NCBI GenBank assembly: GCA_934500865.1
Contig: CAKSUD010000003.1
Location: 9,817-41,816, forward strand
Reading direction: 5' to 3'
DNA length: 32,000 nucleotides
From: an uncultured Clostridia bacterium
GTDB taxonomy: Bacteria; Bacillota; Clostridia; TANB77; RGIG9151
Shown here: piece by piece, positions 1,737 through 32,000 of the stretch
Numbering within the stretch: the stretch's first letter is position 1
How the letters are laid out: every line of letters begins with the position of its first letter
Position numbers and translations under genes: made by a program
Notes under the pieces: generated by a model
What the model saw: only the letters and a program-made list of their open reading frames with translations
Told to the model about the DNA's origin: nothing
Database searches by the model: none

Positions 1737-2000
1737 ATGCATGTGGAAAAAAGAGTTGCAGTCATGGGTATTATAGTAGAAAACAAAGAAACAGTAGAAA
1801 GTTTAAATGCACTTTTGCATAATTATGCAAAATATATTATCGGGAGAATGGGGATTCCGTATAGAGAAAAAAACATAAATATAATAAGTATAGCAATTGA
1901 TGCTCCACAAGATGAAATTTCTGCATTATCCGGAAAAATCGGAAAGCTTTCTGGAATTAGTGTAAAAACTGCATATTCAAATGTAATTTCAAATGAATGA
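1737..2000 (+). CDS. TM1266-family iron-only hydrogenase system regulator (small ACT-like protein)
   Basis: 'RVAVMGIIVENKETVESLNALLHNYAKYIIGRMGIPYREKNINIISIAIDAPQDEISALSGKIGKLSGISVKTAYS' matches the family found in front of hydE/G/F. The SD AGGAGG (1730-1735) is better placed for the in-frame GTG at 1743 than for the ATG at 1737. Confidence 0.85.
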   Translation: MHVEKRVAVMGIIVENKETVESLNALLHNYAKYIIGRMGIPYREKNINIISIAIDAPQDEISALSGKIGKLSGISVKTAYSNVISNE

Positions 2001-3051: not shown

Positions 3052-3078
3052 AAAGTGAAAAAAGAAAGGGGTTTTAAA

Positions 3079-4527: not shown

Positions 4528-4540
4528 GAAGGAGAAAGAT

Positions 4541-14153: not shown

Positions 14154-14168
14154 ATGGGAGGAATTTGT

Positions 14169-15347: not shown

Positions 15348-15365
15348 AAAAGGTGAACTAAAGTC

Positions 15366-15393
15366 GAGGCTACTTTTCAGCAGCCTCTTTTTT
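15366..15393 (+). terminator. Intrinsic terminator after ddl
   Basis: GAGGCT (15366-15371) pairs with AGCCTC (15382-15387), followed by TTTTTT (15388-15393). Confidence 0.8.
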
Positions 15394-15401
15394 CTTTGTG
15401 T

Positions 15402-15430
15402 TTGACATACATATTTATAAAAGATATAAT
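15402..15430 (+). promoter_or_regulatory. Perfect consensus sigmaA promoter
   Basis: TTGACA (15402-15407), exactly 17 nt spacer, TATAAT (15425-15430). It lies inside the track's over-extended ORF 15396..17204, so the real start must be downstream. Confidence 0.8.
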
Positions 15431-15482
15431 GACTTTACCAACTAAATGTTTTAGTTTTCGAAACCATAAAAAATCAATAAGG

Positions 15483-17204
15483 ATGGTGTGTATTTTGAAA
15501 GATAAAGTTATAAAAAGATTTAAGAATATAAAAGAGCTACTTTATCATTCTGCAAAAATTTATGCTGATAATGTAGCTTTTATGGTAAAAAGCAAAAGTA
15601 AAGAAGGTATTAAATATACGGAACATACCTATTTGGATTTATTAAATGATATAAATTGCTTTGGTACAGCCTTACATAAACTTGGATTAAAAGAGAAAAG
15701 GGTTGCGGTAATTGGGCATAATTGCTATGAATGGGCGGTAGCACATTTAGCTAATTTAATGGGTGATATAGTTTCTGTTCCATTAGATAAGGGACTTCAA
15801 ATTGGAGAATTAGAAAGCTCTTTAATTAGAAGTAAGGTCGACGCAGTAGTATTCGACCATAAATTAAAGGATATTATAAGGGAAATAAAAGAAAGAGGAA
15901 ATACCCAAATACATCACTATATATGCATGGAAAAAACAGATGAGTTCTTATATTTCTATGATTTACTTGAGAGTGGTAAAAAGGAAATAGAAGATGGAAA
16001 TAACGAATATGTAAATTGTAAAATCGATGAATATAAAATGAGCATATTATTATTTACGTCCGGTACTACATCTAGGTCTAAAGCTGTTATGTTAAATCAA
16101 TATGGAATAGCTACCAATATATATGATATGCAATTAGTTGAAACGTTTTACACGGACGATGTTAACATTGCATTTTTACCGTTTCATCATATTTTTGGTT
16201 CTACCGGAATGCTTGTTATGCTAGCTTCAGGAGTGAAAACTGTTTTCCCTGACGGGTTAAAATACATACAACAAAATTTAGTTGAGTATAAAGTATCTGT
16301 ATTTATAGGTGTACCTATATTAATAGATAAAATGTATTCAAACATAATGAAGGAATTAAAAAAACAGAAGAAAGATAAAATTATTAAATTTTTAGTGAAA
16401 TTTAGCAACCTATTATTAAAGTGTCATATAGATGTAAGAAATACTTTCTTTAAGCCTATTAATAATGCGATAGGTGGCAATATGAGAACTATTATATCTG
16501 GAGGAGCTCCGCTTGATGCGAATGTAGCTAAGTGGTTTAATGAAATTGGTATACGTCTTGTTCAAGGGTATGGGCTAACTGAGACGTCTCCTGTTATAGC
16601 TGCAGAAAATGATTATTTAATAAAGAGTGGTACGGTAGGATTACCTATGAAAAATGTCGAAATTAAGATTGAAAACGCCGATGCAAATGGTATAGGTGAA
16701 ATAAAGGTAAAAGGACCTAATGTAATGCTAGGGTATTATGAAGATGAAGAACAAACAAAAGAAGTATTAAAAAACGGATGGTTTTATACAGGTGATTTGG
16801 GTTTTATAGATAAAGATGGGGTTTTATCTATTACAGGAAGAAAAAAAGATTTGATAGTATTAAAAAACGGTAAAAAAGTTTTTCCTGAGGAAATTGAAAT
16901 ATTAATAAATCGATTGGAAGAAGTTGAAGAATCGTTTGTTTATGGATTACCTGATGAAAATGATAAAAATGATGTGAAAGTGGCTGTTAAAATTGTCTAT
17001 GATGAAAAAACAGTTAAATCAAAATATCCGAATGCCTCTTTGGAAGAGTTAAACAAGATAATTTGGGATAAAATTAAGGAAATAAATCAAACTCTTCCTA
17101 TGTATAAACATGTAAAGAAGTTAAGTTTGACAAGCGAACCGTTAATAAAAACATCTACAAATAAGATAAAAAGAAACGAAGAATTAAAGAAAATTTTAAT
17201 GTGA
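15483..17204 (+). CDS. AMP-dependent long-chain acyl-CoA synthetase/ligase (FadD/FAA1-like)
   Basis: Adenylation motifs 'LLFTSGTTSRSKAVML', 'GYGLTETSP', 'YTGDLGFIDKDGVLSITGRKKDLIVLKNGKKVFPEEIE' and the C-terminal 'NKIKR'. The start is ATG 15483, or the in-frame GTG 15486 or TTG 15495, all just after AAGGATGG. Confidence 0.8.
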   Translation: MVCILKDKVIKRFKNIKELLYHSAKIYADNVAFMVKSKSKEGIKYTEHTYLDLLNDINCFGTALHKLGLKEKRVAVIGHNCYEWAVAHLANLMGDIVSVPLDKGLQIGELESSLIRSKVDAVVFDHKLKDIIREIKERGNTQIHHYICMEKTDEFLYFYDLLESGKKEIEDGNNEYVNCKIDEYKMSILLFTSGTTSRSKAVMLNQYGIATNIYDMQLVETFYTDDVNIAFLPFHHIFGSTGMLVMLASGVKTVFPDGLKYIQQNLVEYKVSVFIGVPILIDKMYSNIMKELKKQKKDKIIKFLVKFSNLLLKCHIDVRNTFFKPINNAIGGNMRTIISGGAPLDANVAKWFNEIGIRLVQGYGLTETSPVIAAENDYLIKSGTVGLPMKNVEIKIENADANGIGEIKVKGPNVMLGYYEDEEQTKEVLKNGWFYTGDLGFIDKDGVLSITGRKKDLIVLKNGKKVFPEEIEILINRLEEVEESFVYGLPDENDKNDVKVAVKIVYDEKTVKSKYPNASLEELNKIIWDKIKEINQTLPMYKHVKKLSLTSEPLIKTSTNKIKRNEELKKILM

Positions 17205-17254: not shown

Positions 17255-20200
17255 ATGAAAAATAATAAAGATAAATCGATACTTAAAATGAATAAGGACT
17301 TTTTTGCTATTTATTCTATTTATAGAAGGTTAAATGATACAAAAAATTCTAAAACCCAATTAGTACCTGCAAGTGAGTGGCTTTTGGATAATTTCTATAT
17401 AATTGAAGAACATGCAAAGCAAATAAAAAGGGATTTTAATAAGAAAATATATAGGGATTTGCCTATTGTAAGTTCCGGATATACAAGAGTTTTTACGATT
17501 GCAAGAGAAATTGTAGAAAAAAATGATGGAAAAATTGATGAGAATATTATAGAAAACTTTATAAAAAAGTATGAGGAAGTTACACCATTATATATGCGTG
17601 AAATATGGAATTTAGGTGTAACATTAAGAATATCCCTTATAGAAAAAATAAGAAAAATAAGCGAAGAAATAGTAAGAACGTATAGTAAATGGGAACAAGC
17701 AGAAAAGTGGTTAGAAGATTATAACGAAAATTCAGAATTAAGGTTACCGGGTGTTGACGATAATTATTCTTTTTATGAGCATCTTGCTTTTAAACTAAGG
17801 AGAATGGGGAAAGACGGAATCATAGTTCTAAACCGTATTGATAATTACATAGAGAAATACGGTACAAGTATTGAAGCTATTTCGAGGAAAGAGCATAGCA
17901 TTCAAGCTGAAATGAAAATTTCTATAGGAAACTCTATTCAAAGTTTAAAATATATTTCTAATATTAATTGGAATGAGCTTTTTAATAAAATAAGTGAAAT
18001 TGAAAACATTTTTAATACAGAAAAATCAGGTATTTATCCTAAAATGGATTTAGAGAGTAAAAATGCATACAGGAGCAAGGTAGAAAAAATCGCAAAAACC
18101 TTTGAGATTTCTGAATTGCATGTAGCTAAAAAATGTGTGGCATGTGCAGATGAAAATTATGATGATGAAAAAGCCGGACACGTCGGATATTATCTATTAG
18201 ATGAAGGTAAGGAGGTCCTAATAGATAATTTAGATGTGAAAGTTCCATTTTTATATAAACTAAAAAACTTTTTTGTGAAAAATCCATTCCCTATCTATTT
18301 AACAACAATGATTTTATTTGCACTTATTTCTACTGTATTATTGTATTTACTTTTTTATTTTACGACAGGGATTACAAGACTTTCTTATATCGGATTAGTA
18401 TTTGGATTTATTATTGCGTTTGATGGAGGAGTATGTTTTGCGAATTACCTATTTAGTAGAATGTTTAAGCCTAGAGTGATACCACGACTAGATTATATGG
18501 AAGGTATTCCTGAGAATTCGGCTACTATGGTTATTGTTCCTACATTACTATCAAGTAAAAAAAGAGTAAGTGATATGCTAAGTAATTTAGAAAAATATTT
18601 TGTAGCAGTATCGTCTGAAAATGTGTTTTTTACATTGGTAGGGGATGCAAAAGAGAGTGAAACAGAAGATATAGAAGAGGATGAAGAAATTGTAAAAAAA
18701 GGGATAAGTACCGTAAATAGGTTAAATGAAAAGTATGGTGCTAAAAAGTTCTTTTTTGTATATAGAAAAAGATTTTTTAATGCGTCAGAAGAAAAATGGC
18801 TTGGATGGGAAAGAAAACGTGGAGCAATACTAAAATTTAATGAATTTTTGATTGACGGCAAAAAAGAAGATTATAGATGTGTTTCGGATGGTTTTAATAC
18901 TTTGCCGAAAATAAAATATGTATTAACAGTTGATGCAGATACAATAATTCCTATAAATGAAGCCAGAAAGTTAATTGGAGCGATTTCACATCCTGTAAAT
19001 AAACCTGTATTAAATGAGGAAGAAACTGCTGTTGTTTCGGGGTACGGACTAATTCAACCACATATAGGAATAGATGTGGTAAGTGCAAACCAGAGTAAAT
19101 TCTCACAGGTATTTGCCGGAACCGGAGGAATAGACCCATATGTTTGTGCATCATCAGATATTTATCAAGATTTATTTGGGGAAGCAATCTTTACAGGAAA
19201 AGGAATTTATGATTTGGAAGTATTTCAAAAGGTTTTAAAGGATACTTTACCGGATAATGCTATTTTAAGCCATGATTTACTTGAAGGATCATATCTTAGA
19301 GCGGGGCTGGCAACAGATATTGAACTAATAGATGGTTATCCTTCTAGATATAATGCTTATGCAATGCGTGCACATAGATGGATAAGAGGCGATTGGCAGA
19401 TACTTTCTTGGATGTTTGGAAAGGTAAAAAATAGAGCGAATGAAACTATAAAAAATCCAATAAATAAAATATCAAAGTGGAAAATATTCGATAACCTAAG
19501 AAGAAGTTTAACAGCACCGTTTATGATGCTACTGATATTTTTGGCATTTTGGATATTGCCCGGAAATCCATTAATATGGACTGCTTTTGCAGTAATACTC
19601 GGAATAAGGGGAAACAAAAAACAATTTTTATATCAGTTTTTATTTCTTCCGTTCCAAGCTTGGCTTATGTTTAGTGCAATATGTATAACGCTATATAGAA
19701 TGGTTTTTATAAAGAAAAACTTATTAGAATGGGTTACAGCAGCAGATATGGAAACTAAGTTAAAAAATACTTTAGGTAGTTTTTATTTTCTTATGAAATC
19801 TAACTTAGTTCAAGGACTTGCAATTTTTTTACTTGCGTATTTCGTAAAGGGAGACAGAGTATCGATAATTACAGGGTTATTCTTATTTGCAGTTTGGACA
19901 ATTTCACCGATAATTGCATTTTATATAAGTAAACCACGTCATAATAAAAATGAAAATTTAAGTGATGATGAAAAGGAAGAACTAAAAATATTTGCAAAGA
20001 ATACTTGGAGCTATTTTGAAACATTAATGAACGCTGAAAATAATTTCCTTCCACCTGACAATTTTCAAGAAGATCCACCAAATGGGGTAGCATATAGAAC
20101 ATCTCCTACAAATATTGGATTGGGGATGCTTGCAATTTTGTCAGCTTACGATTTAGGATTTATAGATAAAAATGAGTTGATAGATAGGTTTGAAAAAATA

Positions 20201-22225
20201 TTAAATACAATTGAAAAGCTGGAGAAATGGAATGGGCATTTGCTTAATTGGTATAATACTAAAACGCTAAAGCCTTTATTTCCAAGGTATATTTCTACTG
20301 TAGATAATGGAAACTTTTTAGCTTATGCTATTACAGCTAGAGAAGGAATTAAGGAAATACTATGTGACGAGGATGAGAAAAAGAAGGAGTTTGTAGAAAA
20401 ACTTGAGCAAATAATTAAAGAAATGGATTTCTCAATTTTATATGATAAAAAGAAAAATGTATTTTCTATCGGGTATAACCTAGAAGAAGGAAGGCTTACA
20501 AATTCATATTATGATTTACTGGCTTCAGAGGCAAGGCAGACAAGTTTTTTAGCTGTTGCTCGTCATGAAGCGCCGGTAAAACATTGGTTTTCTTTAGGTA
20601 GAAGTTTAACGAAGTTAAACGGGCATAAAGGGCTGGTATCTTGGACAGGTACGATGTTTGAATATTTAATGCCACTTTTAGTTATGAAAAATTATTACAA
20701 AACTTTACTTGATGAAACGTATGATTTTGTAATAGAAAGCCAAATGATATATGCAAAAAAGAAAAATGTCGTATGGGGAATTTCCGAATCAGCATTTTAT
20801 AACTTTGATATTAATTTGAATTATCAATATAAAGCGTTAGGCGTTCCTTGGTTAGGCTTAAAAAGAGGACTTATAGATGATACTGTTATCTCACCTTATT
20901 CTACTATGCTAGCACTTATGGTAAAGCCGAAAGAGGCATATAAAAATTTAGGGGTAATGTTGGATTTTAATATGTTTGGAAAGTTTGGCTTTTATGAAGC
21001 AATTGATTTTACTCCTGGAAGGCTTAAATTTATAACAGGTGATAAGAATTATGCACAAATAAAAAGTTATATGGCACATCATCAAGGAATGAGCTTGGTT
21101 GCAATTAATAACGTAATAAATAATTTTGTTATGCAAGAAAGATTCCATAGAGATGTTTATGTAGAGTCAGCAGAGGTACTTCTGCAAGAAAAAGTTCCCG
21201 GAGATATAATTTATACTAAGGATAGTAAGGAAAAGGTTGTACCACCAAAGCAAGTTGTTTATGAGAGTATTGATACCGATCGTGAAATAGAGATAAAAGA
21301 AAATATAAGACCTGAATTTAATGTGCTTACGAATGGAAGTTATTCGGTAAGAATAAATGATAGAGGTATAGGAGTTTCCCAACTTAGCAATGTATCAATT
21401 TCAAGATATAGAAGTGATTATTTAAACGAAATATATGGGCAGGTATTTTATATAAGATGCATTAATACAGGTGAAATATGGTCACCAACATATCTCCCGT
21501 ATTTTAAGAAACCGGATAAATATATGACAGTTTTTTCAGGAGATAAAACTAAGTTTATTCGTAGAGATGGAAATATAGAAACTAATTATGAAGTGGTAGT
21601 AGCGACTGAGGATAACCTAGATATAAGGCGTATTTCAATAGTAAACCATAATGATATGGCACTAGACTTTGAAGTTACAGGATTACTTGAAATTGTTAAT
21701 GGAGACCAAAACGCAGATATTGCACACAGAGCTTTTTATGGACTATTTGTTACTACTGAACAAGAAAACGAAGTATTACTTGCAACTCGTAAACCTAGAA
21801 ATAGCAACGAAGAAAATTTTGTGGTATTTCAAACGTCTTTTGTGAATGGAGACAGTGTTGGAGATTTTCAGTTTGAAACAGACAGAATGAAGTTCTTAGG
21901 CAGAGGAAGAAGCAATAAAAACCCAAGTGCAATATTGGAAGGAAAACCTTTACTAGGAAGTGTAGGCGGAGTTTTAGACCCAATATTTGCACAAAGAAGA
22001 ATTATACGAGTAAAACCAAATGAAACAGCAAGTGTAAACTTTATTACCGGTATACAGCCGGAACGGGAAAAAGCACTGGAAACAGGTACTCGGTATAGAA
22101 AAGATGAAATGATTTCAAGAGTGTTTAGATTAGCGTATGCTAGAAATCAAGTTGAATTATCATACCTTAATGTTACTTCTGATGAAGTGAAATTTTTTGA
22201 CGATATGATAAAATATTTAGTTTAA
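17255..22225 (+). CDS. Cyclic beta-1,2-glucan synthase (Cgs/NdvB/ChvB-like), N-terminal 1656 aa: GT84 glycosyltransferase, TM segments, (alpha/alpha)6 cyclization domain and the first GH94-type beta-sandwich
   Basis: N-terminal 'SEWLLDNFYIIEEH'. GT84 motifs 'TMVIVPTLL', 'LTVDADT', 'LSHDLLEG' and 'HRWIRGDWQ'. Several TM clusters. Glucoamylase-like middle domain motifs 'YRTSPTNIGLG', 'NGHLLNWYNT', 'STVDNGNF', 'YDLLASEARQ', 'WTGTMFEYLMP', 'WGISESA', 'GFYEAIDF' and 'AHHQGMS'. Confidence 0.85.
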   Translation: MKNNKDKSILKMNKDFFAIYSIYRRLNDTKNSKTQLVPASEWLLDNFYIIEEHAKQIKRDFNKKIYRDLPIVSSGYTRVFTIAREIVEKNDGKIDENIIENFIKKYEEVTPLYMREIWNLGVTLRISLIEKIRKISEEIVRTYSKWEQAEKWLEDYNENSELRLPGVDDNYSFYEHLAFKLRRMGKDGIIVLNRIDNYIEKYGTSIEAISRKEHSIQAEMKISIGNSIQSLKYISNINWNELFNKISEIENIFNTEKSGIYPKMDLESKNAYRSKVEKIAKTFEISELHVAKKCVACADENYDDEKAGHVGYYLLDEGKEVLIDNLDVKVPFLYKLKNFFVKNPFPIYLTTMILFALISTVLLYLLFYFTTGITRLSYIGLVFGFIIAFDGGVCFANYLFSRMFKPRVIPRLDYMEGIPENSATMVIVPTLLSSKKRVSDMLSNLEKYFVAVSSENVFFTLVGDAKESETEDIEEDEEIVKKGISTVNRLNEKYGAKKFFFVYRKRFFNASEEKWLGWERKRGAILKFNEFLIDGKKEDYRCVSDGFNTLPKIKYVLTVDADTIIPINEARKLIGAISHPVNKPVLNEEETAVVSGYGLIQPHIGIDVVSANQSKFSQVFAGTGGIDPYVCASSDIYQDLFGEAIFTGKGIYDLEVFQKVLKDTLPDNAILSHDLLEGSYLRAGLATDIELIDGYPSRYNAYAMRAHRWIRGDWQILSWMFGKVKNRANETIKNPINKISKWKIFDNLRRSLTAPFMMLLIFLAFWILPGNPLIWTAFAVILGIRGNKKQFLYQFLFLPFQAWLMFSAICITLYRMVFIKKNLLEWVTAADMETKLKNTLGSFYFLMKSNLVQGLAIFLLAYFVKGDRVSIITGLFLFAVWTISPIIAFYISKPRHNKNENLSDDEKEELKIFAKNTWSYFETLMNAENNFLPPDNFQEDPPNGVAYRTSPTNIGLGMLAILSAYDLGFIDKNELIDRFEKILNTIEKLEKWNGHLLNWYNTKTLKPLFPRYISTVDNGNFLAYAITAREGIKEILCDEDEKKKEFVEKLEQIIKEMDFSILYDKKKNVFSIGYNLEEGRLTNSYYDLLASEARQTSFLAVARHEAPVKHWFSLGRSLTKLNGHKGLVSWTGTMFEYLMPLLVMKNYYKTLLDETYDFVIESQMIYAKKKNVVWGISESAFYNFDINLNYQYKALGVPWLGLKRGLIDDTVISPYSTMLALMVKPKEAYKNLGVMLDFNMFGKFGFYEAIDFTPGRLKFITGDKNYAQIKSYMAHHQGMSLVAINNVINNFVMQERFHRDVYVESAEVLLQEKVPGDIIYTKDSKEKVVPPKQVVYESIDTDREIEIKENIRPEFNVLTNGSYSVRINDRGIGVSQLSNVSISRYRSDYLNEIYGQVFYIRCINTGEIWSPTYLPYFKKPDKYMTVFSGDKTKFIRRDGNIETNYEVVVATEDNLDIRRISIVNHNDMALDFEVTGLLEIVNGDQNADIAHRAFYGLFVTTEQENEVLLATRKPRNSNEENFVVFQTSFVNGDSVGDFQFETDRMKFLGRGRSNKNPSAILEGKPLLGSVGGVLDPIFAQRRIIRVKPNETASVNFITGIQPEREKALETGTRYRKDEMISRVFRLAYARNQVELSYLNVTSDEVKFFDDMIKYLV

Positions 22226-22241
22226 TTATGGAGGAGAAAAT

Positions 22242-24956
22242 ATGAAAAATACTAAGGGTATCCTCTGGAGTCATGGAATTTCAGGTGATTTACCGATTGT
22301 GCTTATTGTTATAAAAAAATACGAAGACTTAGATGTTATTTACGATATGATAAAAGCACACGAGTATTGGAGAACAAAGGGGATTTTTGTTGACCTTGTT
22401 ATTTTAAGTTACGAGGAAATTAGTTATAATCATCCTTTGTGGAACAGCATATTTGAAATTGTGTCCGGCAGCCATTTAGGTAACTTACAAAATGTGTCCG
22501 GTGGAGTTTTTATGTTACGAGGAGAAATTTTAGATAAACAAGATATAGAAGAACTTATCAGTATTGCTAATATTGTGTCAGAAGATGGTGGAGTTAGGTT
22601 ACCTGAAGATGTAAAAGCAGAAGAACCATATAATGATAGTTTGTTAAGAACTGGCGGAAAAAGTATAGATAAAAGAAAACTTGAGTTTTTTAATGGAATT
22701 GGTGGCTTTGATGAAAAGGCAATGGAATATGTTATATATCCCACAAAAAATGAATACACTCCCCTTCCTTGGAGCAATGTAATGTGTAATAAGGATTTTG
22801 GCTGTATAATGACAGAAGCGGGTGGCGGATATACATGGGCATTTAACAGTAGAGAATATAGGCTTACTCCTTGGAGTAATGATGCAGTTAGTGACTTACA
22901 AGGAGAATATGTATATCTTGAGGATTTAGACAGTAAAGAACGCTTTGGGGCCTATTTACTTCCTTACGAAACTAATGGAGGATATGAAGTGTCTTTTGGG
23001 CTTGGATACTGTAAATATCTATCTATAATATCCGATTTATTAATTGAGCTTACTGTTTTTGTGCCAAGAAAAGAGCTTGTAAAAATTTCTATGATAAAGA
23101 TTAGAAATCTAAGTGGCAGAAAAAGAAAGTTAAGTTTAAGGTATTATATTAATCCGGTACTTGCATTTAGTAATAATTTTAGAGAAAAAAATATAAAGAC
23201 GACAGTTGATAATGATAAAATAATTTTTGAAAATAAATACGAAAGAGAATTTTTTTATAGTAAGGTTTATTTAACAACGGGCAAAGGAAGCAATTTTTAT
23301 AAGAAAAATATTGGGGTAGAATCGTATATTAATGTTGAAATAAATGATAATGATGAACTAAATAAAGTGTTCCTTTTGGGGGCTTGTGAAAATGAAGTGA
23401 TTGCAGATAAATTTTTAGAATGGGAGAAAGCAAGTACTGAATTAGATGAAGTAAAAAAGTTTTATAAAAAAGATGTACAAAAAATAAAAGTTAACACTCC
23501 GGACAAAGCTACTAATTTATTATTAAATGGTTTTTTACTATATCAGGCACTTGTTTGCAGAATTTTTGGTAAGAGTTCATTTTATCAGTCTGGAGGAGCT
23601 ACCGGATTTAGAGACCAACTTCAAGATGTTATGCCGTTTTCGTTTATTATGCCGGAGCTTACTCGTGAGCAAATTTTATACCACGCCAGACATCAGTTTG
23701 ATGAGGGAGACGTCTTGCATTGGTGGCACAAAGAAGCTCAAAAGGGAACACGAACGAGATTTTCGGACGATTTGCTATGGTTAGTTTATGTAACTAATTA
23801 TTATATAAAAGTAACTAATGATAAAAGTATTTTAGATGAACAGGTTTCGTTTGTAGAGGGGGTAGAGCTTGAGGATTATGAGGATGAAAAATATATTGAA
23901 TTTGAATATTCTCAAAATAGCGCCTCTTTATTTGCACATTGTATTTTTTCAATTGAACATGCATTAAAATTTGGAGAACATGGACTTATATTAATGGGAT
24001 CAGGTGACTGGAACGACGGAATGAATGAGGTCGGAAATAAAGGAAAAGGTGAGAGTGTATGGCTTTCGTGGTTTTTATATAAAATACTTGTTGATTTTTC
24101 TCCCATTTGTACAGAACAAGGTAGGGCTGATTTAGCGGAAAAATATAATGAAATTGCGATAAAGTTAAAAGAACAGATCAATACTAAAGCATGGGATGGA
24201 GAATGGTATAAAAGAGCATATTTTGATGATGGAACTCCTCTTGGTTCGATAGAAAATGATGAGTGTAAAATAGATTCTATTTCACAGTCTTGGAGTGTTA
24301 TTTCCGGTGCAGGAGATGAAAATAAAAAAGAGAAGGCTATGAATTCACTGGATAATTATTTAATAGATAAAGAAAATGGAATTATAAAATTACTCACTCC
24401 TCCATTTTCAGAAGGCGAATTAAAGCCAGGATATATAAAGAGCTATTTAGAGGGAATTCGTGAAAATGGTGGTCAATATACTCATGCAGCTATTTGGGCA
24501 GGAATTGCTTATGCAATAATGAAAAAGGGAGATAAAGCATTTTCTATATTTGAAATGTTAAATCCTATTAATCATAGTAGAACAGACAGTGAAATGAAAA
24601 AATATAAGCTAGAGCCGTATGTTATTTCAGCTGACATATATACTAACCCGCTTCATATAGGGCGGGGGGGTTGGAGTTGGTATACTGGTGCAGCATCTTG
24701 GATGTATAGGTTTGGAATTGAATATATATTAGGAATAAAATTTAGAGGAAAAACGGTTATTATTGAGCCGTGTACAAGCTCTGATTGGAATGAATATACT
24801 TTGGAGTATAAAATTAAGGATACAACATACAACATTAATGTTAAGCTTAACTCCGGCAAAGAAAATAAGATTGTTATTGACAATGTGTTAGAAGAGGGAA
24901 ATAGCTTTACTATAAGTGAAGACGGAAAGTTTCATTTTATAGAGGTATATTGCTAA
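22242..24956 (+). CDS. GH94 beta-1,2-glucooligosaccharide phosphorylase-like module of the cyclic glucan synthase, encoded as a separate 904-aa ORF
   Basis: 'LWSHGISGDLPIV', 'PLPWSNVM..GGGYTWAFNSREYRLTPWSND', and catalytic (alpha/alpha)6 motifs 'GFRDQLQD', 'GSGDWNDGMN', 'RENGGQYTHAAIW' and 'GRGGWSWYTGAASW'. The ATG is 6 nt after GGAGGAG. It is in a different frame from the upstream ORF. Confidence 0.85.
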   Translation: MKNTKGILWSHGISGDLPIVLIVIKKYEDLDVIYDMIKAHEYWRTKGIFVDLVILSYEEISYNHPLWNSIFEIVSGSHLGNLQNVSGGVFMLRGEILDKQDIEELISIANIVSEDGGVRLPEDVKAEEPYNDSLLRTGGKSIDKRKLEFFNGIGGFDEKAMEYVIYPTKNEYTPLPWSNVMCNKDFGCIMTEAGGGYTWAFNSREYRLTPWSNDAVSDLQGEYVYLEDLDSKERFGAYLLPYETNGGYEVSFGLGYCKYLSIISDLLIELTVFVPRKELVKISMIKIRNLSGRKRKLSLRYYINPVLAFSNNFREKNIKTTVDNDKIIFENKYEREFFYSKVYLTTGKGSNFYKKNIGVESYINVEINDNDELNKVFLLGACENEVIADKFLEWEKASTELDEVKKFYKKDVQKIKVNTPDKATNLLLNGFLLYQALVCRIFGKSSFYQSGGATGFRDQLQDVMPFSFIMPELTREQILYHARHQFDEGDVLHWWHKEAQKGTRTRFSDDLLWLVYVTNYYIKVTNDKSILDEQVSFVEGVELEDYEDEKYIEFEYSQNSASLFAHCIFSIEHALKFGEHGLILMGSGDWNDGMNEVGNKGKGESVWLSWFLYKILVDFSPICTEQGRADLAEKYNEIAIKLKEQINTKAWDGEWYKRAYFDDGTPLGSIENDECKIDSISQSWSVISGAGDENKKEKAMNSLDNYLIDKENGIIKLLTPPFSEGELKPGYIKSYLEGIRENGGQYTHAAIWAGIAYAIMKKGDKAFSIFEMLNPINHSRTDSEMKKYKLEPYVISADIYTNPLHIGRGGWSWYTGAASWMYRFGIEYILGIKFRGKTVIIEPCTSSDWNEYTLEYKIKDTTYNINVKLNSGKENKIVIDNVLEEGNSFTISEDGKFHFIEVYC

Positions 24957-26349: not shown

Positions 26350-26361
26350 GGAATGGTAAAT

Positions 26362-26619
26362 ATGGAAAACGAAATAGTTATGATTTATAAAACTAATGAA
26401 AAATATCAAGAGGTAGAAGGACTAATAAGCTTTTTAGCATCAGCAGGTATAAATGCACTTCGTTCGCCTCACTCTGTTATTGGTTCGGCTCTAGACCAGG
26501 TTAATGGGATATGTATATTTGTAAATAAAGAACAAGAAGAAGAGGCAAAAATTCTTATAAATGAATATTTTAATAAGAATCCTGAGTTTGTAGACTTACC
26601 GGATGAATTAAAAGATTGA
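26362..26619 (+). CDS. Small hypothetical protein, possibly DUF2007-like (beta-alpha-beta signal-transduction fold)
   Basis: 85 aa. It has two beta-alpha units, 'IVMIYKTNEKYQEVEGLISFLASAGINA' and 'ICIFVNKEQEEEAKILINEY'. The family assignment is by pattern only. Confidence 0.4.
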   Translation: MENEIVMIYKTNEKYQEVEGLISFLASAGINALRSPHSVIGSALDQVNGICIFVNKEQEEEAKILINEYFNKNPEFVDLPDELKD

Positions 26620-26656: not shown

Positions 26657-26684
26657 GACAAAAAATGCAAATTATAACTAAATT

Positions 26685-26717
26685 CGACACTAGCCTTCAA
26701 GTGTCGTTATTTTTTTT
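26685..26717 (+). terminator. Second tandem terminator-like hairpin upstream of agrB
   Basis: CGACACT (26685-26691) pairs with AGTGTCG (26700-26706), followed by TTATTTTTTTT. Confidence 0.55.
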
Positions 26718-26739
26718 GTCGAAATATGATGTAATAAAA

Positions 26740-26748
26740 TGGTAGAAT
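26740..26748 (+). promoter_or_regulatory. Candidate extended -10 promoter element for agrBD
   Basis: TGgTAGAAT (26740-26748). No good -35 occurs at 17 nt; TTGTCG is 21 nt away. It is about 75 nt upstream of the agrB start. Confidence 0.3.
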
Positions 26749-26824
26749 ACCCATTGACTGGAAGAAAAAGCCGAGTTATTATATAAGTGTCAAAACACAA
26801 GACTGTTGTGAAGGAGTGAGTGAT

Positions 26825-27442
26825 ATGTTAGAAGAACTCGGTGAAAAAATTGGAAATGCAGTTGAGAATAATCTTGATGATATAACGCCTACTCAAAAAG
26901 AGATTATTCAATATACAGTAGTACAAGTTTTTGGAGAACTCATAAAAATGGCAATAATGTTTGCTATTGTATGGCCGTTTGGAGTAGCACATTTATTATT
27001 AATAGCGATTTTTTCCATGGCGATATATAGAGTCCCATCAGGCGGGGTACATTCTAAAAGCCATATCGCTTGCTTTGTCACAAGTATGATTTTATTTATG
27101 GGAAATGTTTTAATTTCATCATTAGTAAAAGGACCACATTTAGATATTATATATATATTAATTTTTTTGATAAATATTCCTATTATTCATTATTTTGCTC
27201 CGGCAGATACAGAAATGAAACCGGTAGTAAGCAAGAAACAAAGGTTACTACTGAAAATTATTTCTTATATATGTATGACTGGTACGATATTAATCGGAAG
27301 ATTTGCTATTAATGATATAGTTATAAGAAATATATTTATATTCGGAACATTAATTCAAAGTATAACAATGTTACCATTTATATATAAAATTCTGGGAACA
27401 AGATACGGGTACAGAGACGGGATAGTAGTTCCACAAATTTAG
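26825..27442 (+). CDS. agrB: AgrB-family accessory gene regulator B (AgrD-processing membrane cysteine endopeptidase)
   Basis: Polytopic membrane protein. 'YRVPSGGVHSKSHIACFVTS' carries the His and Cys spaced 7 residues apart, as in the AgrB catalytic pair. The ATG at 26825 is 8 nt after AAGGAG; the track start (GTG 26816) lies in the SD. Confidence 0.85.
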   Translation: MLEELGEKIGNAVENNLDDITPTQKEIIQYTVVQVFGELIKMAIMFAIVWPFGVAHLLLIAIFSMAIYRVPSGGVHSKSHIACFVTSMILFMGNVLISSLVKGPHLDIIYILIFLINIPIIHYFAPADTEMKPVVSKKQRLLLKIISYICMTGTILIGRFAINDIVIRNIFIFGTLIQSITMLPFIYKILGTRYGYRDGIVVPQI

Positions 27443-27500
27443 ATTTTTTTAGAGTGGCGCGTGCTCTAAGAATATATAAAAATTAAAGGAGGAGTTTTTT

Positions 27501-27629
27501 ATGAAAAAAATGTTATGTAAGTTAACAAACAGGGTAGCAAATGTATACGGAGGAATGACAAGTAGTGCATCTATGTTCTTATTCTTAGGACAAGTAAAAA
27601 CACCGGCTTGCTTAATTAAAAAAGACTAG
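27501..27629 (+). CDS. agrD: AgrD-like cyclic autoinducing peptide precursor (42 aa), not in the ORF track
   Basis: The ATG is 6 nt after AAAGGAGGAG and 58 nt after agrB. Translation: MKKMLCKLTNRVANVYGGMTSSASMFLFLGQVKTPACLIKKD. It has a basic/amphipathic leader, a hydrophobic core 'SSASMFLFL', and a Pro-containing charged tail 'GQVKTPACLIKKD'. Confidence 0.8.
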   Translation: MKKMLCKLTNRVANVYGGMTSSASMFLFLGQVKTPACLIKKD

Positions 27630-27698
27630 TACATAAGTGACTTTACTATAAGCATAGCTTAATTATTGGCTACATAAGTTCTTAATTTGTAATTCATT

Positions 27699-27736
27699 AA
27701 AAAAGCCTCTCGACCGGTCCTCGAGAAGCTTTTTTT
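27699..27736. terminator. Bidirectional terminator between agrD (+) and the anti-sigma gene (-)
   Basis: A-run 27699-27704. GCCTCTCGA (27705-27713) pairs with TCGAGAAGC (27721-27729) with one mismatch. T-run 27730-27736. Confidence 0.8.
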
Positions 27737-28340
27737 ACTTTAATTCATATACAAACCCATCTTTTAACTCATAGAAAATTTCAACATTGTCTTTTATTAT
27801 ACTATATCCGTTTTCTGTCTTTTTAGCATCCGGATTATTTCTTAAAAATTCTTCTTCTGGAATCTCGGTCGTAACTGAATCATTATAAGGGTTTGCTAAA
27901 TCTTGTGTTATAGGGCTAAAAGAAGAGGAACGCGTAAGGCCATCGGCGATATTATTTAATGTATTTTCCAGGGTATAATATGATGACTCTAATTCTTTTA
28001 ATGGAGATGATGATTTAATCATCATTTTACGCTCCGGAAGGGTGTCAAATTTAACTGCTGTATCATCCGTACTTTGTAAAATGTATTCTCCGGTATGTAG
28101 TTTTGGAGAAAATTCATCATTAGAACTTTTACTAAATATGTTTTTATTATTTACTACATATATAGATAAACAAAGGCAAGTTACAACAAAAACCGCTGCA
28201 CAATTTTTTATCCAATAAGGTAAGTGATAAACATTATTTTTAGAATATATATTGTTTAACGTTCTTTCCTTTAGTTCATTTGACACTGTAATATTTTTTA
28301 ATTTTTTTTCAAATTCTTTCTTTAATTCTTCTTTTTTCAT
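27735..28340 (-). CDS. Putative single-pass membrane anti-sigma factor
   Basis: It starts 17 nt after the ECF sigma gene with its own AAGAGGTGA SD. It has a short cytoplasmic N-terminus, one TM ('AAVFVVTCLCLSIYVV') and an extracytoplasmic C-terminal domain of about 135 aa with no recognisable family and no HxxxCxxC zinc motif. The call is by position and topology only. Confidence 0.55.
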   Translation of the reverse strand: MKKEELKKEFEKKLKNITVSNELKERTLNNIYSKNNVYHLPYWIKNCAAVFVVTCLCLSIYVVNNKNIFSKSSNDEFSPKLHTGEYILQSTDDTAVKFDTLPERKMMIKSSSPLKELESSYYTLENTLNNIADGLTRSSSFSPITQDLANPYNDSVTTEIPEEEFLRNNPDAKKTENGYSIIKDNVEIFYELKDGFVYELK

Positions 28341-28357
28341 AATGTTTTCACCTCTTT

Positions 28358-28864
28358 CTATTCTTCTAAAATTATCTTTAGTTTTTCTTTAAGAATTTCT
28401 CTTGCTCTTTTCATTCGAGTTCTTACAGTGGCTTCAGGAATATTTAATACATTAGAAATTTCAATTGTCGAAAAATCTTTATAATAGTAGAGAATTAAAA
28501 CATCTTTATATTTAGTAGGTAATAGTAAAATTTCATTTAATACCATATTCGCAGTCTCATTATCTATTATACTTTCATCAAAACTCACAGTTTCTATTGG
28601 ATCATTAAAGTTTTCAATAGAAACTACTTTCTTTCTCCAAGCACTTTTTAAATAGTCTTTACATGTATTTATTGTTATTTTTATAATCCATGTTTTTTCA
28701 GAACTTTTTCCTTGAAATGAGCTAAGATATTTATTAACTTTTAAAAAAACATCTTGAAATATATCTTCGGCTGTGCTAGGATTTTGCATGTATAGTGTCG
28801 CTATGCGAAGAACATCATTACCGTAAAGCTCAATTAAGTTTTCAAGCTTTTCTTTATTATTCAT
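28358..28864 (-). CDS. ECF-type sigma-70 family RNA polymerase sigma factor
   Basis: Region 2 is 'AEDIFQDVFLKV...WIIKITINTCKDYL'. Region 4 HTH is 'YKDVLILYYYKDFSTIEISNVLNIPEATVRTRMKRAREIL'. 168 aa. Confidence 0.85.
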   Translation of the reverse strand: MNNKEKLENLIELYGNDVLRIATLYMQNPSTAEDIFQDVFLKVNKYLSSFQGKSSEKTWIIKITINTCKDYLKSAWRKKVVSIENFNDPIETVSFDESIIDNETANMVLNEILLLPTKYKDVLILYYYKDFSTIEISNVLNIPEATVRTRMKRAREILKEKLKIILEE

Positions 28865-28891
28865 AACTTCAACTCCTACGGTTAATTATTA

Positions 28892-28918
28892 GACGAATTA
28901 ACGCTTAATTTTGTTTCA
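28892..28918 (-). promoter_or_regulatory. ECF-type (autoregulatory) promoter
   Basis: On the minus strand: TGAAAC (28918-28913), 17 nt spacer, CGTC (28895-28892). This is the AAC...CGT architecture of ECF promoters, about 25 nt upstream of the sigma-factor SD. Confidence 0.65.
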
Positions 28919-28973
28919 ATTATAGTATGACATATTTTTTAATATTTTTCAAAGGGATTTTGGAGGGACTTGT

Positions 28974-30308
28974 ATGGACTATTATATTTTAACACCAATT
29001 TCATTTTTATTGAGAATTTTGGAGGCATTTTCTCAATTTAGCTTAGTTTTAGTTATTTTAGACAAAAACATTTTTAATAAGAAACATCTTTTTGGAGCAA
29101 TATTGTTTTCGGTAATTTTTGAATTAGGAAAGTCGATTTGCCCACAATATTTATCTGGATTTTTAGCCATTATATTAGGTGTTCCTTTTATATCTATATA
29201 TTTTAAAGAAAAAGTATGGAAAGTTGGGATATCTTATATAATTACCGGAATAGGTGTGGCATTTTTAGATTTTATAGTTTTACTATGTTTATCATTGATA
29301 TTTCACATTCAAAAGTTTGATGATATTGCAAATATGCCATTGTTATATAACTTAGGCTGTTTAATAATTTCCATGTCTTTATTAGGAATAAGTTATGTGA
29401 TTTATTTAGTAAAGAGAAAGCGTAATATAAAACTTGAAGCTTTACCTAAGGCTACAACAGGATTGATTAATGCAATTGCAACATTTTTATTGTTAGTACC
29501 GAACCTAGTTATGCTTTTATATTATCATGATGATAAAAATATACCACTTATAATTATAATCATAAATATTCTTGCAATTATAGCAATGTTCTTTGTAAGT
29601 ACATATAACACTAAGAAAGGCTTTGAATTAGTAACTGCTGAGCAAGAATTAGTAACTCAAAAGACGTATAATAAAACTCTACAAAATCTTGTAGATGGAC
29701 TACGTACGTTTAAACATGATTATAACAATACACTTCAAACGATGTATGGTTATATACAACTAAATAATATGACTGCACTACGAGAATTTTTTGAACAAAT
29801 ATTGGATGAGTCAAGAGCCATAACGGCATTAGATAAATTAAATCCTGATCTTTTTAAAAATCCAAGTTTGTTTGGATTAATTACTGCGAAATATGAATAT
29901 GCAAGACAAAATAATGTTAATATAAACTTTGAAATGTATGGAAAACTTGAAAATGCTAATATGCAAATATATGATTTGACAAGAACTCTTGGAATATTTT
30001 TAGATAATGCAATTGAGGCATCTGCCGGAAGCGATAAGAAAAAGGTTAACTTTATGGTATGTGAAAGAAGAGGGAAAGTAGTTATCGAAATTACTAATTC
30101 ATATTCAGAAACAGGGTTAACGATAGAAAATATAAATGATAAGGGTATGTCTTCAAAAGGAGAAAATAGAGGATTAGGTTTATATAAAGTTAAGGAAATA
30201 TTAAAGAAGTACTCTAATGTTAAGCATGAAACAACAGCGTCAAAAGGTATGTTTATGCAAAGACTTACCATAAGTAAAATAAAAGAAAATTCAAAACAAA
30301 AATGTTAG
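28974..30308 (+). CDS. AgrC-like (HPK10 family) membrane sensor histidine kinase
   Basis: About six N-terminal TM helices. H-box 'FKHDYNNTLQTMYGY', N-box 'IFLDNAIEAS', G-box 'NRGLGLYKV'. The ATG is 6 nt after GGAGGG. Confidence 0.8.
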   Translation: MDYYILTPISFLLRILEAFSQFSLVLVILDKNIFNKKHLFGAILFSVIFELGKSICPQYLSGFLAIILGVPFISIYFKEKVWKVGISYIITGIGVAFLDFIVLLCLSLIFHIQKFDDIANMPLLYNLGCLIISMSLLGISYVIYLVKRKRNIKLEALPKATTGLINAIATFLLLVPNLVMLLYYHDDKNIPLIIIIINILAIIAMFFVSTYNTKKGFELVTAEQELVTQKTYNKTLQNLVDGLRTFKHDYNNTLQTMYGYIQLNNMTALREFFEQILDESRAITALDKLNPDLFKNPSLFGLITAKYEYARQNNVNINFEMYGKLENANMQIYDLTRTLGIFLDNAIEASAGSDKKKVNFMVCERRGKVVIEITNSYSETGLTIENINDKGMSSKGENRGLGLYKVKEILKKYSNVKHETTASKGMFMQRLTISKIKENSKQKC

Positions 30309-30320
30309 GAGGAAATTTAT

Positions 30321-31310
30321 ATGTTAAAAGTAACCGTTTTTGATACAAAGCAATATGATATTGCCGGTTTTGAAAAATACGGAAAGGAAAATGATATTAA
30401 TTTTAAGTTTTTTGACACAAAACTTACAGAGGATACTGTGGGTTTAACAAGAGGATCTGACGCAGTAGTAGTGTTTGTAAACGATACTGTAAATGAAAAG
30501 GTTATAAAGGAGTTATGCGAAAATGGAGTTAAATTAATAGCATTAAGATGTGCCGGATTTAATAATGTGGATTTAAAAGCTGCACAAGGCAAAATAGCTG
30601 TTGTAAGAGTTCCGGCATATTCTCCATACGCGGTAGCTGAACATACAATGGCACTACTACTTACATCACTTAGAAGAATTCATAAGGCATATAACAGGAC
30701 AAGGGAATTTAATTTTAGTCTTAACGGACTTACCGGGTTCGATTTACATGGAAAGACGATAGGGGTAGTAGGAACAGGAAAAATAGGAAAGATATTTATT
30801 AATATTTGTAAGGGTTTTGGAATGAACGTAATAGCATATGATTTATACCCTGACAATAATGCAGATATAAAATATGTAAGTTTAGATGAATTATTTGCGA
30901 ATAGTGATATTATTTCTCTTCATTGTCCACTTACAGCAGACAATAAGTATTTAATTAATAAAGAAACAATTGCTAAGATGAAGAAAGGTGTTTATATTTT
31001 AAATACTTCTAGGGGAATGTTAATTGATGCAGAAGCATTAATTGAGGGAATAAAAGAGAAAAAGGTTGGCGCAGCTTGTCTGGATGTTTATGAGGAAGAA
31101 AATGATATCTTCTTTAAAGATTATTCGGGACATATATTGCAGGACGATATTTTAGCTAGACTTATTTCTATGCCAAATGTTATCATTACATCTCATCAGG
31201 CATTTTTAACTGAGGAAGCTTTGGATAATATAGCGAATACTACTGCAAAAAATATAAAGACTTTTTTTGATGATGGAAAATGCGAAAATGAAATAGCATA
31301 TAAAGAGTAA
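30321..31310 (+). CDS. ldhA: Fermentative D-lactate dehydrogenase (D-2-hydroxyacid dehydrogenase)
   Basis: It is collinear with E. coli LdhA along its whole length: 'STKQYD', 'IALRCAGFNNVDL', 'VRVPAYSPYAVAEH', 'GVVGTGKIG', 'SLHCPLT', 'NTSRG', 'LDVYEEE', 'SHQAFLTEEAL'. It starts 12 nt after the kinase stop, with an AGGAGG SD. Confidence 0.9.
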   Translation: MLKVTVFDTKQYDIAGFEKYGKENDINFKFFDTKLTEDTVGLTRGSDAVVVFVNDTVNEKVIKELCENGVKLIALRCAGFNNVDLKAAQGKIAVVRVPAYSPYAVAEHTMALLLTSLRRIHKAYNRTREFNFSLNGLTGFDLHGKTIGVVGTGKIGKIFINICKGFGMNVIAYDLYPDNNADIKYVSLDELFANSDIISLHCPLTADNKYLINKETIAKMKKGVYILNTSRGMLIDAEALIEGIKEKKVGAACLDVYEEENDIFFKDYSGHILQDDILARLISMPNVIITSHQAFLTEEALDNIANTTAKNIKTFFDDGKCENEIAYKE

Positions 31311-31317
31311 AAAATGA

Positions 31318-31343
31318 CGCAAAGCTTAGCTTTGCGCCATTTT
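31318..31343. terminator. Bidirectional terminator between ldhA (+) and the repeat-protein gene (-)
   Basis: CGCAAAGC (31318-31325) pairs with GCTTTGCG (31329-31336), with a TTA loop. AAAA lies upstream and CCATTTT downstream. Confidence 0.75.
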
Positions 31344-31349
31344 ATGTTA

Positions 31350-32000
31350 TTAATAAATTCTTAATTTGATGTATTCTGTATCGCCTGTGTTGTACTTTAC
31401 TTTTAATTCAGTAGTCCCTTTTTTCTTAGGAGTTACTGTAATTTTTTCTGATTTTGTTAGGCTAGTTTTAGATAAACTAACATAGCTACTATCATAAGTT
31501 ATTGTTGCACTTTTTGCATCGAAAACATCTAAGTTTATTGCAAGAGCAAGATTTCCGTTATAGCTAAAGCTTATTTCACGAGAAGTTGTTGTATTGTCAT
31601 CGTCATCTATAATAACATCAATATAATCTGTATCTCCTGTATCATATTTGATCTTTATTGTAGTTTCTCCGGCTTTTTTAGCAGTTACAGTAACTTTACC
31701 TGAACTTGTAAGTTTTGTTTTAGATAAACTGATGTATTTGTCATCATAAGTTAAAGTAGCTTTGTCTGCATCGTAATCTTCAAGATCTATATAGATAGTA
31801 TCTTTTTCACCAACACTAAGTTTTATTTCATCATCGTTATCGTCGTCATCATCGTCTTCAATGATAACATCAATGTATTCTGTATCACCTGTATTAAATT
31901 TAACTTTAATTGTGGTTTCGCCTTCTTTTAGGGCTTTAATAGTAACTTTACCTGAACTTGTAAGCTTTGTTTTAGATAAACTGATGTATTCATCGTCATA
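31350..32000 (-). CDS. C-terminal 216 aa of a surface protein made of tandem bacterial Ig-like (Big_2-type) modules joined by poly-Asp linkers; the 5' end lies outside the window
   Basis: The minus-strand frame is open from 32000 to the TAA at 31352-31350 and contains no Met, so it is absent from the track. Translation: YDDEYISLSKTKLTSSGKVTIKALKEGETTIKVKFNTGDTEYIDVIIEDDDDDDNDDEIKLSVGEKDTIYIDLEDYDADKATLTYDDKYISLSKTKLTSSGKVTVTAKKAGETTIKIKYDTGDTDYIDVIIDDDDNTTTSREISF...LKVKYNTGDTEYIKLRIY*. Confidence 0.75.
   Translation of the reverse strand, partial: YDDEYISLSKTKLTSSGKVTIKALKEGETTIKVKFNTGDTEYIDVIIEDDDDDDNDDEIKLSVGEKDTIYIDLEDYDADKATLTYDDKYISLSKTKLTSSGKVTVTAKKAGETTIKIKYDTGDTDYIDVIIDDDDNTTTSREISFSYNGNLALAINLDVFDAKSATITYDSSYVSLSKTSLTKSEKITVTPKKKGTTELKVKYNTGDTEYIKLRIY
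31390..32000 (-). repeat. 252-bp (84-codon) tandem repeat, about 2.4 copies in the window
   Basis: GATAAACT recurs at 31471, 31723 and 31975, exactly 252 nt apart. GTAACTTTACCTGAACTTGTAAG is identical in the two right-hand copies. The leftmost copy is more diverged. Confidence 0.8.

Follow-up and report, generated by a model that had tools for sequence, protein, structure and literature searches.

Peptide quorum sensing in Firmicutes has its model in the agr system, and the many clostridial agr loci that lack AgrA raise the question of their signal output. In Clostridioides difficile, agr3—carried by phage phiCDHM1 and present in strains NAP07, NAP08, and QCD-23m63—comprises agrC, agrB, and agrD without a response regulator gene, and its authors propose that the regulator is encoded elsewhere (PMC3901668). 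System 1 of Clostridium autoethanogenum (agrD1-agrC1-agrB1) has no agrA and is adjacent to a spo0E-like gene; here, too, the regulator "may be encoded elsewhere" (PMC8748961). The AgrC-like kinase RgaS of C. difficile and its regulator RgaR form an unlinked cognate pair that controls agrB1D1, agrBD of Clostridium perfringens is paired with VirS/VirR, and RgaS is reported not to be the receptor of the autoinducing peptide (AIP) (PMC10602386). Here, we analyze a locus in a 32-kb stretch of DNA (the window) from an uncultured gut or rumen Clostridia bacterium, in which agrB and agrD are separated from an AgrC-type kinase gene by a gene pair for an extracytoplasmic function (ECF) sigma factor and a membrane protein. 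With agrB, agrD, an agrC homolog, and no response regulator gene, the locus has the composition by which AgrA-less clostridial agr loci are defined in the literature.

The elements listed in the initial annotation of this region were all borne out. agrB with its His/Cys pair, a 42-codon agrD, and a bidirectional terminator are followed on the opposite strand by an ECF sigma factor gene with its own TGAAAC-N17-CGTC promoter and a single-pass membrane partner, and then by a six-transmembrane (TM) HPK10-type kinase with the H-box FKHDYNNTLQ, all as had been annotated; the kinase proved to be of the AgrC type, which is associated with agr across many Clostridia. Likewise, no response regulator is encoded in the window, where neither Pfam (Response_reg or LytTR, open reading frames [ORFs] of ≥90 aa) nor phmmer (stop-to-stop ORFs, E ≤ 10) returned a single match. 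The locus as a whole is predicted to be a conserved, intact, and functional agr variant. While the absence of AgrA is ordinary for clostridia, an ECF module that is persistently linked to the gene for an AgrC-type kinase without AgrA, as seen in three gene orders, is new. The layout had been taken to be undescribed altogether; this does not hold for the AgrA-less agrB/D/C arrangement, which is already published (PMC3901668, PMC8748961), but it stands for the ECF association, as no description of a linkage between an ECF sigma factor and agr was found in the literature searched.

Signal, receptor, and the missing regulator gene

agrB (26825–27442, + strand) encodes a 205-aa membrane cysteine peptidase that would process AgrD (Pfam AgrB, 7e-31). 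The ORF was called from a GTG at 26816, but the conserved N-terminus MLEELGEK begins at the ATG at 26825. Within the motif GGVHSKSHIAC, residues G77, H79, and C86 do not vary among the 32 distinct AgrBs that the fetched loci yielded, with the catalytic His and Cys seven residues apart, and the protein has several hydrophobic segments.

The gene for the 42-aa AIP precursor, agrD (27501–27629, + strand), lies 58 nt downstream of agrB. Of the five proteins proposed for confirmation by hidden Markov models (HMMs), AgrB, the sigma factor (regions 2 and 4), and the kinase were matched, whereas AgrD and the membrane partner were not. For AgrD, neither Pfam nor NCBIfam yielded a match, so that its designation rests on alignment and position rather than on a curated HMM. 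It is homologous to the small ORFs located between the kinase gene and agrB in canonical sister loci (agrA-agrC / agrD-agrB; phmmer, 4e-4 to 9e-4). In an alignment of eight clade members and five sister-clade AgrDs, the leader and the C-terminal tail (LGQxKTPxCLIKKD) are nearly invariant within the clade. Between them, an invariant Ser precedes a hypervariable stretch (S-MFLF in the window, followed by the conserved tail LGQVKTPACLIKKD), and almost every sequence has its own set of four residues after the Ser: MFLF, TFLV, TFLL, AILW, IFLL, AAWL, and IVWL. An invariant Ser with a hypervariable segment is, judged from the alignment, the signature of an AIP specificity region. Since sister-clade AgrDs have a Cys at the position of the clade Ser, the predicted ring is a lactone and not a thiolactone, and the AIP of the window would be a Ser-lactone with the ring S-M-F-L-F. 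The alignment also provides a collection of predicted Ser-lactone AIPs for rumen and gut Clostridia.

The kinase gene (28974–30308, + strand) encodes a 444-aa, HPK10-like receptor histidine kinase of the AgrC type, with Pfam matches to HATPase_c_5 (7e-17) and SPOB_a (1.5e-9). A polytopic sensor with six strong hydrophobic segments is joined to a dimerization and histidine phosphotransfer (DHp) domain—carrying H248 within the H-box at residues 246–255—and a GHKL ATPase domain. The best NCBIfam match is staphylococcal AgrC (4.7e-35, under the equivalog cutoff of that model), and modules of Staphylococcus aureus AgrC are the only relatives of solved structure (1.7e-27). Across 16 kinases of the clade, H248, N345, and the G-box GxxRGLGL are invariant. 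Mean pairwise identity amounts to 33% in the sensor, 65% in the DHp domain, and 57% in the catalytic domain, and invariant columns number 2 of 205 in the sensor and 15 of 63 in the DHp domain. This combination of a conserved DHp domain and a fast-evolving sensor points to a receptor with a constant phosphotransfer partner and a diversifying ligand.

To place the missing agrA in context, we fetched 83 loci around relatives of the kinase and mapped genes for AgrB, AgrD, AgrA-like regulators, ECF sigma factors, and the membrane partner by phmmer. Counting distinct kinases, these represent 61 loci, 15 from the close clade and 46 from outside it; the metagenome contig scan contributed only three close-clade loci. 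The AgrA-like seed was an S. aureus AgrA sequence, and its matches were corroborated by the Pfam-verified regulator of L009, a locus of the nearest sister clade. An AgrA-like LytTR regulator gene lies within 900 nt of the kinase gene in 36 of the 46 outside loci and in none of the 15 close-clade loci. The ten outside loci without one are contigs that end near the kinase gene, and every outside locus with usable flanks has AgrA; the zero count in the close clade includes loci with 7–10 kb on both sides. The AgrA-less clade itself is recovered in 300 of 300 bootstrap replicates.

Transcription units and the ECF module across relatives

Upstream of agrB, a consensus scan returned two tandem sigma-A-like promoters (26719–26782, + strand): TCGAAA-N18-TAGAAT with a TG extension, and TTGACT-N17-TATTAT. 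All eight relatives in the alignment share this conserved upstream block, irrespective of whether their layout contains the ECF pair. Upstream of the promoters is also an inverted element, AATTCRACA...TGTCGRAAT (26660–26735), which the eight aligned relatives likewise keep whatever their layout and which does not resemble LytTR direct repeats.

agrBD ends at an intrinsic terminator (27699–27735) that folds on either strand and is common to agrBD (+) and the ECF operon (–). Its two strands reach –14.7 and –20.0 kcal/mol (z-scores of –4.2 and –4.5), and none of 200 shuffled sequences folds as well. In layouts a, b, and d (described below), and so also in relatives devoid of the ECF pair, agrD is followed by the hairpin core GACCGGTCCTC, which identifies the hairpin in the window as the ancestral agrD terminator. 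Since a kinase promoter then follows in each of these layouts, agrBD and the kinase gene appear to be separate transcription units throughout. The ECF pair of the window is situated in the interval from this ancestral terminator to the kinase promoter.

The ECF gene (28358–28864, – strand) encodes a group 4 sigma factor of 168 aa with only the sigma-2 and sigma-4 regions (Pfam Sigma70_r2, 1e-15, and r4_2, 1e-12; TIGR02937, 1.4e-30), whose best relative of solved structure is Bacillus subtilis SigW (1.6e-18); its NCBIfam matches are to generic ECF models. Its 73 orthologs, at 56–97% identity, make up a discrete block. Seventeen nucleotides downstream, in the position of an anti-sigma factor gene, is the gene for the 201-aa membrane partner (27735–28340, – strand), which has one TM segment. 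Six orthologs are built alike: a conserved cytoplasmic N-terminus of ~35 aa and the TM helix are connected by a variable linker to a conserved extracellular C-terminal domain of ~45 aa. In each of the three ECF-bearing layouts, an ortholog of the partner gene comes after the ECF gene. The partner matched nothing in Pfam (six orthologs), a PDB profile search, or Foldseek, and showed no homology to anti-sigma domains; a single-sequence AlphaFold model (mean pLDDT 48) is confident only for residues ~157–200 (pLDDT 85–92).

The ECF gene is preceded by the ECF-type promoter TGAAAC-N17-CGTC(TAA) (28892–28918, – strand), presumably autoregulated. It is the single match to this pattern in the window, against 0.05 expected by chance. 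Layouts a, b, and c keep both hexamers before the ECF gene, with a spacer that varies, which supports ECF autoregulation. Two further matches to a relaxed pattern fall inside the kinase coding sequence on the antisense strand and were taken as chance. Back-to-back with the ECF promoter, in the 109-bp intergenic region of the ECF and kinase genes, is a predicted sigma-A-type kinase promoter, TTAACG-N17-TATAGT (28898–28926, + strand; called by consensus scan, its function being presumed). The two interdigitate: the –35 box of the kinase promoter lies inside the ECF spacer, and its –10 box abuts the ECF –35 box. Two RNA polymerase holoenzymes would hence compete for the same ~40 bp. The conserved block GTTTCAAnTATAGTATkACATATTTTT, which contains the predicted kinase promoter, is shared by layout a and the kinase copy that lies divergent to the ECF gene in L028 (see below).

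In the kinase leader of the ECF-free relatives L029, L069, and L070, and likewise of L071, a small hairpin with a T-run is found ~60–20 nt upstream of the start (e.g., ATAGGTAATGAATTTTGCCTATTTTTTT), which could be an attenuator; the layout a kinase leader has nothing equivalent. Downstream of the kinase gene in the window is a D-2-hydroxyacid dehydrogenase gene with its terminator (30321–31343, + strand; terminator, 31311–31343). The 12-nt gap contains AGGAGG and no hairpin, and the two genes are probably co-transcribed. The dehydrogenase gene follows the kinase gene only in the closest relatives (L001, L003, L027) and not in L068 or layouts b–d.

Five layouts were distinguished among the relatives. 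In layout a (the window, L001/L002, L003, L027, and a partial L068; kinases 66–93% identical to that of the window, the reference for the values below), agrB and agrD are followed by the convergent partner and ECF genes and the divergent kinase gene. Layout b (L028/L072/L073; 53%) has ECF, partner, rplM, rpsI, agrB, agrD, and kinase genes on one strand. In layout c (L071; 49%), the kinase gene is followed on the same strand, after a 98-nt gap with no recognizable terminator, by the ECF and partner genes. Layout d (L005/L029/L033, L069, and L070; 49–51%) reads rplM, rpsI, agrB, agrD, kinase, with no ECF gene within 7–9 kb, and in layout e (L006/L030 and L032; 41–42%) the kinase gene stands alone with no agrBD nearby.

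The kinase tree takes the form (a,(b,(c,d))) with e basal, and every relevant split has bootstrap support of 290–300 of 300 (97–100%); a few outgroup distances are saturated, which leaves the ingroup splits unaffected. On parsimony, the linkage of ECF and kinase genes would have arisen once at the base of a–d and been lost in d. Counted over loci, an ECF sigma factor gene occurs in the flanks of 7 of 15 close-clade loci and 0 of 46 loci outside the clade. Eleven of the 73 ECF orthologs match kinase hits in contig size and source, including contigs of 2.4–7 kb with kinases of 49–52% identity; because of these matched small contigs, the adjacency is expected to be common in the b–d subclade too. 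Several other ECF orthologs reside on contigs of 25–132 kb that match no kinase hit.

At positions 1–210 of L028 (and likewise in L072 and L073), the opening 102 nt of the kinase gene recur in inverted orientation (101 of 102 identical), together with ~18 nt of leader. This copy occupies the contig end, divergent to the ECF gene, with 3.5 kb between it and the complete kinase gene. In two independent samples the contigs stop exactly there, which suggests a genuine inverted repeat, a further copy of the kinase gene, or an invertible segment.

Signal output and the meaning of the linkage

The reading that we favor, with somewhat better than even confidence, is that of a working agr system that signals to an unlinked regulator and has at most transcriptional cross-talk with the ECF module. 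The locus would then consist of three separate transcription units. agrBD would make and export a cyclic AIP; the AgrC-type kinase, expressed from its own promoter, would sense this AIP and pass phosphate to a response regulator encoded elsewhere, most likely of the LytTR type; and the autoregulated ECF sigma factor with its membrane partner would be a signaling module of its own, linked to the kinase gene since the base of the subclade and kept beside it through rearrangements. Because the ECF and kinase promoters interdigitate, the likeliest coupling would be transcriptional cross-talk or co-regulation at the common intergenic region, not phosphotransfer. That the kinase signals to a regulator elsewhere had been proposed from the start, and it is still the most economical reading, with precedents in other clostridia (PMC10602386, PMC8748961), although the regulator itself was not found.

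Several observations weigh against this reading. No response regulator gene was detected in ~290 kb (with redundancy) of close-clade flanks, the cognate regulator thus not being found there. With the Pfam-verified LytTR regulator of L009 as query, a discrete block of proteins at 54–70% identity was retrieved, but the two long-contig members inspected as candidates for a relocated AgrA (P0124, P0134) belong to canonical agrA-agrC / agrD-agrB loci and are not orphans. Upstream of agrB, no LytTR-type direct repeats at 21-bp spacing were recognized, leaving classical autoinduction unsupported; in the sister clade, TATA[CT]GAAAA repeats occur ~20–21 bp apart. The sigma-A promoter calls are consensus matches only and as such predictions, and position and topology alone suggest that the membrane partner is an anti-sigma factor. 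Finally, a scan of the window and its relatives found no ECF-type promoter upstream of agrB or the kinase gene, and four relatives of layout d are free of the ECF pair, so that any ECF coupling would be dispensable or indirect. The functional coupling of agr and ECF envisaged in the initial annotation gains support that is comparative in kind; the sole ECF-type promoter is that of the ECF gene itself.

The strongest competitor, possible but on the unlikely side, is neutral hitch-hiking: an ordinary envelope-stress ECF module would have landed once near the kinase gene in an ancestor, and its continued presence would be phylogenetic inertia. Each unit having its own promoter and terminator would fit this explanation, as would an ECF-type promoter that serves autoregulation only, the agrB-agrD-kinase order of L005/L029, L069, and L070, and the ECF orthologs on long contigs without a kinase hit. 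Moreover, a single gain on the tree reduces the contrast of 7 of 15 and 0 of 46 loci to one event. However, the ECF pair lies at most 2.9 kb from the kinase gene or its 5′ copy across three gene orders and in no fewer than two chromosomal contexts, all other non-agr neighbors differ between layout a and layouts b–d, and layouts a and b share a conserved divergent promoter block of the ECF and kinase genes. In L071, the pair even follows the kinase gene at close distance on the same strand with no terminator recognized between them. The initial annotation had named two signs of a chance insertion, an ECF pair at unrelated positions in relatives and a normal agrBDCA elsewhere. The former is in part borne out by L005/L029, L069, and L070, which are free of ECF genes between agrD and the kinase gene or within 7–9 kb; yet L028, L071, and L068 keep the orthologous pair beside the kinase gene, and no relative with a normal agrBDCA was found. 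Because the orthologous pair adjoins the kinase gene in differing gene orders, a pure chance insertion is not the best description.

We consider it doubtful that the ECF/anti-sigma pair is functionally wired to the AgrA-less, AIP-sensing kinase, be it as an output that replaces AgrA or by gating receptor expression via the interdigitated promoters. If true, this wiring would be a previously undescribed link between agr-type signaling and ECF sigma control. The replacement version, in which the pair took over the role of AgrA in AIP sensing and the kinase or the AIP controls, for example, anti-sigma inactivation, strikes us as more doubtful still. It would account for the complementary distribution (0 of 46 AgrA-linked loci with a nearby ECF gene, and ECF-linked loci never with AgrA), the adjacency that persists through rearrangements, the possible kinase-ECF-partner operon in L071, and the interdigitated promoters of layouts a and b; another AgrA-less clostridial agr locus, moreover, carries a different adjacent regulator, the spo0E-like gene (PMC8748961). 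However, both the basal layout e (L006/L030, L032) and layout d are without the ECF pair, and hence agrA was lost before the ECF linkage arose, a loss that does not depend on that linkage. An invariant phospho-accepting His in a highly conserved DHp domain also argues for a conventional receiver-domain partner, and neither the 168-aa sigma factor nor the ~35-aa cytoplasmic segment of the partner has a receiver-like domain. No mechanism is known through which a histidine kinase would activate an ECF sigma factor without a response regulator, which likewise counts against replacement.

It is highly improbable that the kinase is not the receptor of the local AgrD product, and that it instead senses another signal, as RgaS does, or phosphorylates Spo0A directly, in the manner of orphan kinases of clostridia, with the adjacency to agrBD being regulatory only. 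The organism is a spore former, with an alpha/beta-type SASP gene in the window, and layout e kinases have no agrBD nearby; both facts would be in keeping with such a role. Against it speak the sensor, which at 33% identity is the fastest-evolving part of the kinase, in parallel to the hypervariable AgrD ring, the adjacency of agrBD and kinase genes in layouts a, b, and d and nearly all outgroup loci, and an H-box and DHp domain that look AgrC-like and not of the KinA/Spo0A-kinase type.

The suggestion that the locus is a decaying, non-functional agrBDCA remnant, to which nothing but the absence of agrA from the window would lend weight, deserves virtually no credence and can be dismissed: the AgrA-less state is clade-wide, all ORFs are intact, promoters and terminator are conserved, and neither AgrB nor the kinase shows any change in its catalytic residues across a clade that has diverged to ~40% identity, with the DHp domain the most conserved and the sensor the fastest-evolving part of the kinase.

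The clade provides a clean comparative case, in which an intact, constrained AgrC-type kinase lost its linked regulator once and a subclade then gained an ECF module that became the kinase's only stable non-agr neighbor. Were the linkage functional, it would tie population-density sensing to ECF-controlled, envelope-related transcription, a connection not yet described; were it non-functional, the locus would add one more case to the documented modular, unlinked agr architecture of clostridia.

Neighboring genes and relation to known systems

Elsewhere in the window, several gene groups stand out. Directly after the IreB gene and upstream of agrB, 26353–26619 (+ strand) encodes an 88-aa protein with no Pfam match, whose position is kept in L001, L003, and L027. 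Two very large adjoining genes (17255–24956, + strand) encode proteins of 1656 aa (DUF3131, glucoamylase-like, and GH94 supersandwich domains) and 904 aa (GH94 supersandwich and catalytic domains); as the same split recurs in L001 and L027, it is not a frameshift artifact. Three consecutive genes at 1993–5725 (+ strand) resemble those for the [FeFe]-hydrogenase maturases HydE (radical SAM), HydG (radical SAM with BATS), and HydF (GTPase with HydF dimerization and tetramerization domains). The genes at 12603–17204 (+ strand) form a run that encodes a Mur-ligase-like protein, a D-Ala-D-Ala ligase, and an adenylating, AMP-binding enzyme, perhaps as a cluster for the modification of cell wall or peptides. 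Lastly, an open-ended ORF (31366–32000, – strand) contains internal DNA repeats of ~240 nt; its L001 counterpart has 431 aa and no Pfam match. No Rfam family, RNAIII-like regulators included, scored above threshold in the window.

Compared with agrBDCA of S. aureus, the locus shares an AgrB peptidase with the His/Cys pair, a short AgrD with a variable ring, and a polytopic AgrC-type kinase. It differs in that agrA is missing, agrBD and the kinase gene are separate units split by a terminator, and a Ser instead of a Cys occupies the predicted ring position; in addition, the window has no RNAIII-like or other Rfam RNA match, and no direct repeats resembling an AgrA box were recognized upstream of agrB.

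C. difficile agr3 is mobile or phage-borne and has no reported ECF cassette, whereas the window locus is chromosomal and lies among housekeeping genes. A phage or mobile origin of the window locus was considered and set aside, phage records containing no close relative (≤31% identity). System 1 of C. autoethanogenum resembles the window in being an AgrA-less agrB/D/C locus that keeps a regulatory gene other than a response regulator gene alongside, but there the neighbor is spo0E-like and not an ECF/anti-sigma pair, and the gene order differs.

RgaS/RgaR and VirS/VirR illustrate that AgrC-like kinases and LytTR-type regulators at unlinked positions can be cognate, as we propose for the window kinase. 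RgaS, however, is unlinked from agrBD as well, whereas the window kinase stays with agrBD. With the SigW/RsiW modules of B. subtilis, finally, the ECF pair has in common a minimal sigma factor of regions 2 and 4, a single-pass partner that is probably co-transcribed, and a presumably autoregulatory promoter with AAC in the –35 and CGT in the –10 element; it departs from them in a partner without detectable anti-sigma homology and in the persistent linkage of the whole module to an AgrC-type kinase gene.

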